Shown here: positions 13,492 through 14,229 of the stretch, piece by piece
Layout of the letters: every line of letters starts with the position of its first letter
Position numbering within the stretch: the first letter of the stretch is position 1
Assembly: GCF_003334785.1 (NCBI RefSeq)
Contig: NZ_QOWV01000002.1
DNA: 64,000 nucleotides
Reading direction: 5' to 3' (one strand)
Source: Escherichia coli
GTDB taxonomy: Bacteria > Pseudomonadota > Gammaproteobacteria > Enterobacterales > Enterobacteriaceae
The notes under the pieces: model-generated
What the model was told of the DNA's origin: nothing
Database searches by the model: none
The model's input: the letters and a program-made list of their open reading frames with translations, nothing else
Translations under genes and position numbers: made by a program

Positions 13492-14229
13492 ATGTCACAG
13501 TCTACATCCGTGCTTCGTCGTAATGGATTTACTTTTAAACAGTTTTTTGTTGCTCACGATCGCTGTGCGATGAAAGTGGGAACGGATGGTATTTTATTGG
13601 GCGCATGGGCACCGGTGGCTGGGGTAAAACGTTGCCTTGATATCGGCGCGGGTAGCGGGTTGCTGGCATTAATGCTGGCGCAGCGAACCGATGACAGCGT
13701 GATGATTGATGCAGTTGAACTGGAAAGTGAAGCTGCCGCGCAGGCGCAGGAAAATATCAACCAGTCCCCGTGGGCAGAGCGGATTAACGTCCATACGGCG
13801 GATATTCAGCAGTGGATCACACAGCAGACAGTACGCTTCGATTTAATCATCAGTAACCCACCTTACTATCAGCAGGGAGTAGAGTGCTCGACACCTCAAC
13901 GGGAACAGGCTCGCTATACCACTACGCTTGATCACCCATCGTTGCTGACCTGTGCGGCGGAGTGCATTACCGAAGAGGGATTTTTCTGCGTAGTGCTGCC
14001 AGAGCAGATTGGTAATGGTTTTACGGAGCTGGCATTAAGCATGGGCTGGCATTTACGTTTGCGGACGGATGTGGCGGAAAACGAAGCGCGACTGCCGCAT
14101 CGGGTGCTGCTGGCATTCTCCCCGCAGGCGGGAGAATGCTTTAGCGATCGCTTAGTCATTCGTGGGCCAGACCAGAACTATTCCGAAGCGTATACGGCGC
14201 TGACCCAGGCTTTTTATCTGTTTATGTAA
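13492..14229 (+). CDS. trmN6: tRNA1(Val) adenine-N6 methyltransferase
   Basis: 245 aa from [13 protein letters not shown]...; SAM-binding motif DIGAGSG and NPPY motif. Track start at 13372 is over-extended. Confidence 0.88.

Follow-up and report, generated by a model that had tools for sequence, protein, structure and literature searches.

Four tail-to-tail gene overlaps in a 64-kb stretch of the Escherichia coli chromosome: probable by-products of genome compaction

Within the 64,000-nucleotide stretch of DNA analysed here (hereafter, the window), four pairs of convergent genes share their 3' ends: trmN/nadB (16 nt), tadA/mltF (4 nt), hcaT/csiE (9 nt) and kgtP/yfiM (4 nt). These overlaps are real, ordinary and already known, from the reference annotation, from a genome-wide count and from a catalogue that names them. 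Here we argue, with a probability that we put at about 0.8, that they are ordinary tail-to-tail overlaps of the core genome, tolerated as a by-product of genome compaction, and that no dedicated regulatory device is involved. For discovery, the observation carries little weight: the pairs have been annotated, counted genome-wide and catalogued, and RNA 3' ends (or Rho regions) have been published for three of them. What the analysis adds is context, namely, that the trmN/nadB overlap is fixed across the whole family for a simple dual-coding reason, that, within the window, convergent genes separated by short gaps use perfect hairpins and overlapping ones appear to depend on Rho or on elements located inside the partner, and that convergent transcription as a rule enters the facing gene, coding overlap or not.

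The overlapping pairs and their expected number

The window is a part of the E. coli chromosome that matches several RefSeq genomes at 100% identity and is found in 5,426 of 5,426 complete E. coli genomes. The chromosome of K-12 MG1655 is collinear with it in the reverse orientation (window position = 2,726,256 minus the K-12 coordinate), shows no insertion or deletion at the junctions and carries the identical convergent overlaps. The genes and the shared nucleotides are as follows:

510-1808 (+), kgtP, alpha-ketoglutarate permease
1805-2128 (-), yfiM, DUF2279 lipoprotein
1805-1808, kgtP/yfiM overlap, 4 nt, TTAG, new relative to the first-pass annotation
13492-14229 (+), trmN (yfiC), tRNA m6A37 methyltransferase; stop TAA at 14227-14229, with an in-frame TGA next
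14214-15836 (-), nadB, L-aspartate oxidase; stop TAA, the reverse complement of 14214-14216
14214-14229, trmN/nadB dual-coding overlap, 16 nt, TTATCTGTTTATGTAA, encoding the ends of TrmN (YLFM-stop) and NadB (YINR-stop)
28399-28902 (+), tadA, tRNA adenosine-34 deaminase
28899-30455 (-), mltF, lytic murein transglycosylase F
28899-28902, tadA/mltF overlap, 4 nt, TTAA, two interlocked TAA stops
58410-59549 (+), hcaT, MFS transporter
59541-60821 (-), csiE, stationary-phase-inducible protein
59541-59549, hcaT/csiE overlap, 9 nt, TCATGCTGA

The overlaps were established from ORF scans, the RefSeq annotation (which already carries all four), stop codons read in the sequence, and tblastn searches followed by the finding of in-frame stops. 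In all four pairs, the genes lie on opposite strands and share 3' nucleotides, with each stop located inside the ORF of the partner, and both ORFs are genuine conserved genes, as judged from the RefSeq and K-12 annotations and from full-length orthologues across genera. Conservation of the stop positions from genus to genus shows that the overlaps are not chance ORF artefacts. The first-pass annotation had reported three convergent overlaps, at trmN/nadB, tadA/mltF and hcaT/csiE; all three are confirmed, with coordinates that are exact to the base by ORFs, sequence, RefSeq and K-12 alike, and its count has to be raised to four, the kgtP/yfiM pair having been overlooked.

Such pairs are well known as a class. 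Huvet and Stumpf (BMC Genomics, 2014) counted 663 overlapping adjacent pairs in E. coli, with 75 convergent ones. The pairs described here share with these tail-to-tail pairs the location on opposite strands, the stop inside the partner, an overlap of 4-16 nt and conservation between species, the 4-nt class with interlocked stops included; they do not differ from them in any respect but are simply members of the class, and the only local point is the presence of four within 64 kb. From the 75 pairs, approximately one per 62 kb, or 1.03 per 64 kb, would be expected, so that the observed number of four corresponds to a Poisson P of approximately 0.02. This local excess is mild and was noticed post hoc: the genome holds approximately 72 such windows, of which one or two would reach four, and ExcludonFinder (2025; see below) reports that there is no regional enrichment. 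Altogether, the window contains 11 convergent junctions, and the seven non-overlapping ones have gaps of 44-208 nt.

Dual coding and the persistence of the overlaps

The constancy of the trmN/nadB overlap was assessed with TrmN as the query and one genome per species, which yielded 80 Enterobacteriaceae loci (71-97% identity) with 79 scorable species; both stops were located by tblastn and in-frame extension, and the 100% query coverage fixes the reading frames. The overlap is 16 nt long in 76 of the 79 species and 8 or 12 nt long in the three exceptions, and the species that possess it span Escherichia, Citrobacter, Salmonella, Klebsiella, Enterobacter, Kosakonia, Franconibacter and other genera. 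Nine of its 16 positions never vary, and the others are either synonymous sites of TrmN or stop-codon variants. At the protein level, the TrmN tail FYLFM-stop is invariant in 75 of 76 species, and NadB ends in (Y/H)(I/M)(N/K)(R/K)-stop. Of the 48 single substitutions that the overlap could undergo, only four leave both proteins unchanged, and the 19 substitutions that remove or move a stop are all missense or worse in the partner. In particular, the nadB stop (TTA or CTA on the plus strand) is embedded in the invariant Phe-Tyr codons of TrmN. Thus, dual coding is a sufficient, non-regulatory reason for this overlap to be frozen.

Immediately upstream of the overlap in the direction of nadB translation (14230-14260, minus strand), the last ~10 residues of NadB are highly variable between genera, with 3-nt indels. 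An earlier, truncating nadB stop within this variable tail was seen in 0 of 79 species, and the position of the stop itself is fixed, even though such a change would remove the overlap and would seem to cost little. The overlap is, to this extent, slightly more constant than expected under pure neutrality; phylogenetic inertia, a requirement for a certain tail length, or weak selection for translation into the partner are all possible reasons.

Two incidental observations concern the labels of database entries. A contig labelled Chryseobacterium sp. 18061 (L041) contains an enterobacterial trmN-nadB locus with 81% TrmN identity, which is probably due to contamination or mislabelling, and 'Escherichia sp. 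ESNIH1' (L036) is only 78% identical, which suggests that the genus is wrong.

The other three overlaps were followed in smaller samples. The kgtP/yfiM overlap measures 4 nt in four of four other genera (Salmonella, Enterobacter kobei, Citrobacter koseri and Cronobacter), and the stop codons that form it vary among genera (TTAG, TTAA, CTAG). The tadA/mltF overlap is likewise 4 nt in Enterobacter kobei and Pseudescherichia vulneris. In Salmonella, both genes are kept with no overlap between them: a 50-nt spacer (positions 3053-3102 of locus L085) with the REP-like sequence GCCGGATAAGGCGTT... lies in its place, which, from the sequence, suggests that an insertion separated the two genes. The csiE/hcaT overlap is kept in each of the four other species sampled and drifts in length, being 9 nt in E. 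albertii, 6 nt in both C. koseri and Salmonella, and 4 nt in an Enterobacteriaceae locus whose CsiE is 61% identical to that of E. coli. The drift of csiE/hcaT and the loss of the tadA/mltF overlap in Salmonella, with the genes themselves retained, argue against any strict need for the overlap.

The neighbourhood of hcaT deserves a brief remark. In the loci of Citrobacter koseri, Salmonella and the third Enterobacteriaceae locus with 61% CsiE identity (L089, L090 and L091; genes at ~3773-4914), hcaT is still convergent with csiE and overlaps it, and the hca dioxygenase genes do not flank it. The HcaT transporter may have no functional connection to the hca operon.

The origin of these arrangements can be envisaged as follows. 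The general model holds that convergent overlaps arise by 3' extension after the loss of a stop. A reading frame would then run to the first in-frame stop, which would happen to lie within the last codons of the facing gene, and the 4-nt class (TTAA, TTAG, CTAG) would represent two opposite-strand stops that became interlocked. Once established, the overlap would be held in place by dual coding, as demonstrated above for trmN/nadB and as appears likely for the other three pairs.

Transcript ends at the convergent junctions

When two genes overlap tail to tail, a question to be asked is where their transcripts end. Intrinsic terminators, that is, a GC-rich hairpin followed by a U tract, were sought after all eight stops of the four overlapping junctions and none was found, the counts of the pattern being equal to those expected from shuffled sequences. 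Over the first 60 nt after each stop, the overlapping pairs fold at -0.12 to -0.34 kcal/mol per nt, more weakly than the hairpins of the short-gap junctions, which fold at -0.32 to -0.46 kcal/mol per nt. The latter belong to four convergent junctions with gaps of 44-55 nt, each filled by a perfect GC-rich palindromic hairpin of 11-12 bp:

8766-8812, gap between yfiF and ung
10191-10245, gap between grcA and eamB
39187-39230, gap between glnB and hmp
52441-52487, gap between yphB and yphA

The yphB/yphA hairpin resembles a REP element, and the published 3' end of glnB falls exactly at the end of the glnB/hmp gap.

At the trmN/nadB junction, the search for structure was extended to alignments. 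RNAalifold on 30 species gave -1.6 kcal/mol with three trivial pairs, i.e. no consensus structure, and a sliding-window alifold on 74 species revealed no consensus structure near this junction on either strand. A hairpin at 14256-14278 (CCGGAA...TTCCGG), which in Citrobacter seemed to carry a compensatory change, was considered and rejected as evidence of conserved structure: with 76.7% paired versus 72.5% in the shuffles, a value reached by 11 of 500 shuffles (11-14 of 500 match the observed values overall), it is marginal, and its core is dictated by the Pro and Gly codons of nadB. Likewise, no Rfam family matches at any of the four overlap junctions.

Direct evidence on transcript ends is available from Adams et al. 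(eLife, 2021), who mapped 3' ends by Term-seq and Rho regions by direct RNA-seq with and without bicyclomycin. The features that bear on the overlapping pairs are these, the hairpin being our own addition:

1835-1852 (+), palindromic GC-rich hairpin inside yfiM, GCCGGTGCTTGCACCGGC, z -2.3, no U tract
1859 (+), kgtP RNA 3' end, LB OD 2.0
1890 (+), kgtP RNA 3' end, LB OD 0.4
29151-29192 (both strands), highest Rho scores at tadA/mltF (supplementary file 2)
59494 (-), csiE mRNA primary 3' end, LB OD 2.0 (K-12 2666762)

The two kgtP ends lie inside yfiM in the antisense orientation, at distances of 51 and 82 nt from the kgtP stop, and the first of them is 7 nt downstream of the hairpin. The csiE transcript runs 47 nt beyond its stop and ends 56 nt into hcaT; the 60 nt upstream of this end show no significant structure (z -0.5). 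At tadA/mltF, the Rho region on the tadA strand peaks at 29192(+), ~290 nt into mltF and antisense to it, with a score of 9.6 (p 2e-18): from upstream to downstream, the reads drop from 131 to 14 without bicyclomycin and go from 134 to 138 with it (Adams et al., 2021). The Rho region on the mltF strand, in the sense orientation, is weaker (peak at 29151(-), score 3.2, p 7e-5); all these positions are coarse since the scores are calculated with 800-nt windows. Bicyclomycin thus raises read-through at tadA/mltF, as befits a Rho-dependent terminator. The tables of Adams et al. (2021) contain no entry that names nadB or yfiC, and their Rho-region file, searched for the four names nadB, yfiC, csiE and hcaT, has no entry for any of them. 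Users of these data should be aware that the caption of supplementary file 1 gives the flanks of each end as 40 nt (upstream) and 10 nt (downstream), and the sequences are actually 61 nt long and fit the genome as 50 nt upstream, the end nucleotide and 10 nt downstream; taking the end of the sequence for the 3' end would misplace the position by 10 nt.

These data agree with the proposal of the first-pass annotation that transcripts read into the opposing gene: the published ends of csiE and kgtP lie inside the partner, and the Rho regions point the same way for tadA and mltF. Discrete 3' ends upstream of the overlap, which had been named there as the outcome that would speak against read-through, were seen for none of csiE, kgtP, tadA and mltF, the ends falling within the partner. 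Its companion statement, that the overlaps lack a dedicated terminator as there is no room for one, is borne out by the pattern scans and the folds insofar as all eight stops lack an intrinsic terminator behind them, but goes too far in its second half, because elements that define a 3' end can sit in the coding sequence of the partner. The hairpin at 1835-1852, ahead of the kgtP end, and Rho termination on untranslated antisense RNA are both elements of this kind.

Reading into the facing gene is not peculiar to the overlapping pairs. Adams et al. (2021) list Rho regions antisense to the facing gene at no fewer than five of the seven non-overlapping convergent junctions of the window (at least), namely, those of srmB into yfiE, yfiE into srmB, ung into yfiF, yfiF into ung, yphA into yphB, glnB into hmp, and yfhL into shoB. 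Since such reading occurs at non-overlapping pairs as well, it is not specific to coding overlap. All eight stops of the overlapping pairs are followed, 80-240 nt downstream, by C-rich, G-poor stretches on which Rho could load, which is no more than suggestive.

Hence the transcriptional side of the favoured explanation, genome compaction without a dedicated device, can be outlined. With neither a spacer nor an intrinsic terminator, RNA polymerase would pass the stop of its own gene and enter the coding region of the partner, a step that is backed by published data for three pairs and is expected by analogy for trmN/nadB. The RNA beyond the stop is untranslated and so would be ended within tens to a few hundred nucleotides, either by Rho or at a hairpin within the facing coding sequence, where polymerase would pause or to which the RNA would be trimmed. 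As the RNAs end inside the partner, the two mRNAs are complementary over at least 50-90 nt at kgtP/yfiM and csiE/hcaT, where 3' ends have been mapped. All eight genes are, presumably, expressed weakly or conditionally; given this and the short collision zone, collisions between polymerases and duplex-triggered cleavage by RNase III are expected to be rare and the regulation small. Specifically, general knowledge of promoter strengths and elongation rates suggests that collisions would be infrequent, and any reciprocal regulatory effect of the overlaps is probably small.

Regulatory and other readings

The most serious competitor to this explanation is the possibility that the overlaps are selected regulatory devices, that is, convergent excludons in which head-on collision and/or RNase III cleavage of the duplex makes the expression of the two partners mutually exclusive, which would also account for the conservation of the arrangement. 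The four pairs do belong to the published E. coli excludome: the ExcludonFinder catalogue (2025) lists all of them by name as convergent excludons, with overlapping 3' transcription in at least 50% of 58 MG1655 transcriptomes. The gene pairs are identical to those of the catalogue, and their 3' transcription overlaps. That the partner transcripts do overlap is clear from the literature, in the case of trmN/nadB from the catalogue together with the fact that a full mRNA necessarily reaches its stop. Moreover, according to the same study, synteny is higher, and co-expression in single cells lower, for excludon pairs as a class than for other neighbours, which hints at function, and the overlaps studied here are conserved across genera. 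The catalogue, however, relies on the overlap of coverage-defined transcript boundaries, a test that overlapping coding sequences pass automatically when both genes are expressed. An excludon is defined by reciprocal repression, whereas what the catalogue records for these four pairs is transcript overlap, a trivial criterion when coding sequences overlap, and the capture of double-stranded RNA with p19 could not validate the convergent excludons. The conservation, in turn, is accounted for by the dual-coding constraint, and it is not uniform, considering that csiE/hcaT drifts in length and Salmonella lacks the tadA/mltF overlap. Furthermore, mutual read-in is just as extensive at convergent pairs without an overlap, and the partners have no obvious functional link (a tRNA methylase with NAD synthesis, a tRNA deaminase with a murein hydrolase). 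On balance, it appears unlikely that the overlaps were selected as devices of this kind. Antisense interference or coupled decay, which had been suggested in the first-pass annotation and is proposed by ExcludonFinder for these very pairs, is possible as such; should reciprocal regulation be demonstrated at housekeeping pairs like these, the excludon idea in E. coli would gain support, but there is no sign here of a large effect.

A second possibility is that the overlap is kept for the sake of translation into the partner, which would shield the 3' end of the mRNA from Rho, or because a conserved duplex couples the decay of two unrelated housekeeping mRNAs. If true, this would explain why an earlier nadB stop is missing throughout the 79 species and why the overlap survived changes of stop identity in all four pairs. 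We consider this quite unlikely.

The third alternative invokes overlapping bidirectional terminators of the type described by Ju et al. (2019) and Wang et al. (2022/2023), with ynaJ-uspE as the model pair: a shared hairpin would pause both polymerases, and head-on and trailing collisions would release them independently of Rho. This class has been described as prevalent between convergent E. coli genes and as unlike intrinsic terminators, and the similarities are tangible inasmuch as the genes here are convergent, have no canonical intrinsic terminator and have 3' ends within the zone of opposing transcription; at kgtP/yfiM, there is even a palindromic hairpin without a U tract, with the kgtP end 7 nt downstream of it. 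Yet bidirectional terminators are Rho-independent and lie between genes, and here there is no intergenic space. At tadA/mltF, at the least, termination is Rho-dependent, both strands being sensitive to bicyclomycin; trmN/nadB has no conserved shared hairpin; no significant hairpin precedes the csiE end; and no opposite-strand 3' end is listed at any of the junctions in the data of Adams et al. (2021) that were examined. Collision-driven termination of this sort thus seems very unlikely at the four junctions. It may be added that, in the model, efficiency falls when expression is low. The genes in question are, we presume, weakly expressed.

Finally, it is hardly conceivable that one stop in each pair is not the true protein end and the overlap an annotation artefact at the protein level: the last residues of NadB and the tails of TadA and MltF are indeed variable and under low constraint, but knowledge of the frame leaves no doubt about where a stop lies, full-length homology (100% query coverage) sets the frames, and in up to 79 species the stops occupy conserved positions.

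We return, then, to ordinary overlaps tolerated in a compact genome, for which a known mechanism close to the present case is the suppression of antisense and read-through transcription by Rho. The resemblance lies in the untranslated RNA past the stop being ended in a bicyclomycin-sensitive manner within a few hundred nucleotides, and it applies to tadA, mltF and several of the non-overlapping neighbours. The difference is one of extent: this behaviour has been documented at tadA/mltF, whereas for the other three pairs it is suggested by the base composition and the missing intrinsic terminators.

Several further features of the window lie away from the four junctions. Co-directional overlaps of 4 nt each are found at 16244-16247 (rseD/rpoE), 18455-18458 (rseB/rseC), 22870-22873 (rnc/era), 55028-55031 (hcaC/hcaB) and 55863-55866 (hcaE/hcaF), along with one of 11 nt at 37453-37463 (qseG/glrR); all of these are of the usual operon type. 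Rfam matches elsewhere in the window comprise the 5S rRNA at 69-184(+), ES036 at 11910-11952(+) in the yfiE/srmB gap, AsrC at 18419-19250(-), antisense opposite rseC, the rncO leader at 22033-22247(+), the OhsC antitoxin sRNA at 25660-25736(-), GlmY at 34916-35063(+) and naRNA4 at 63735-63806(+).
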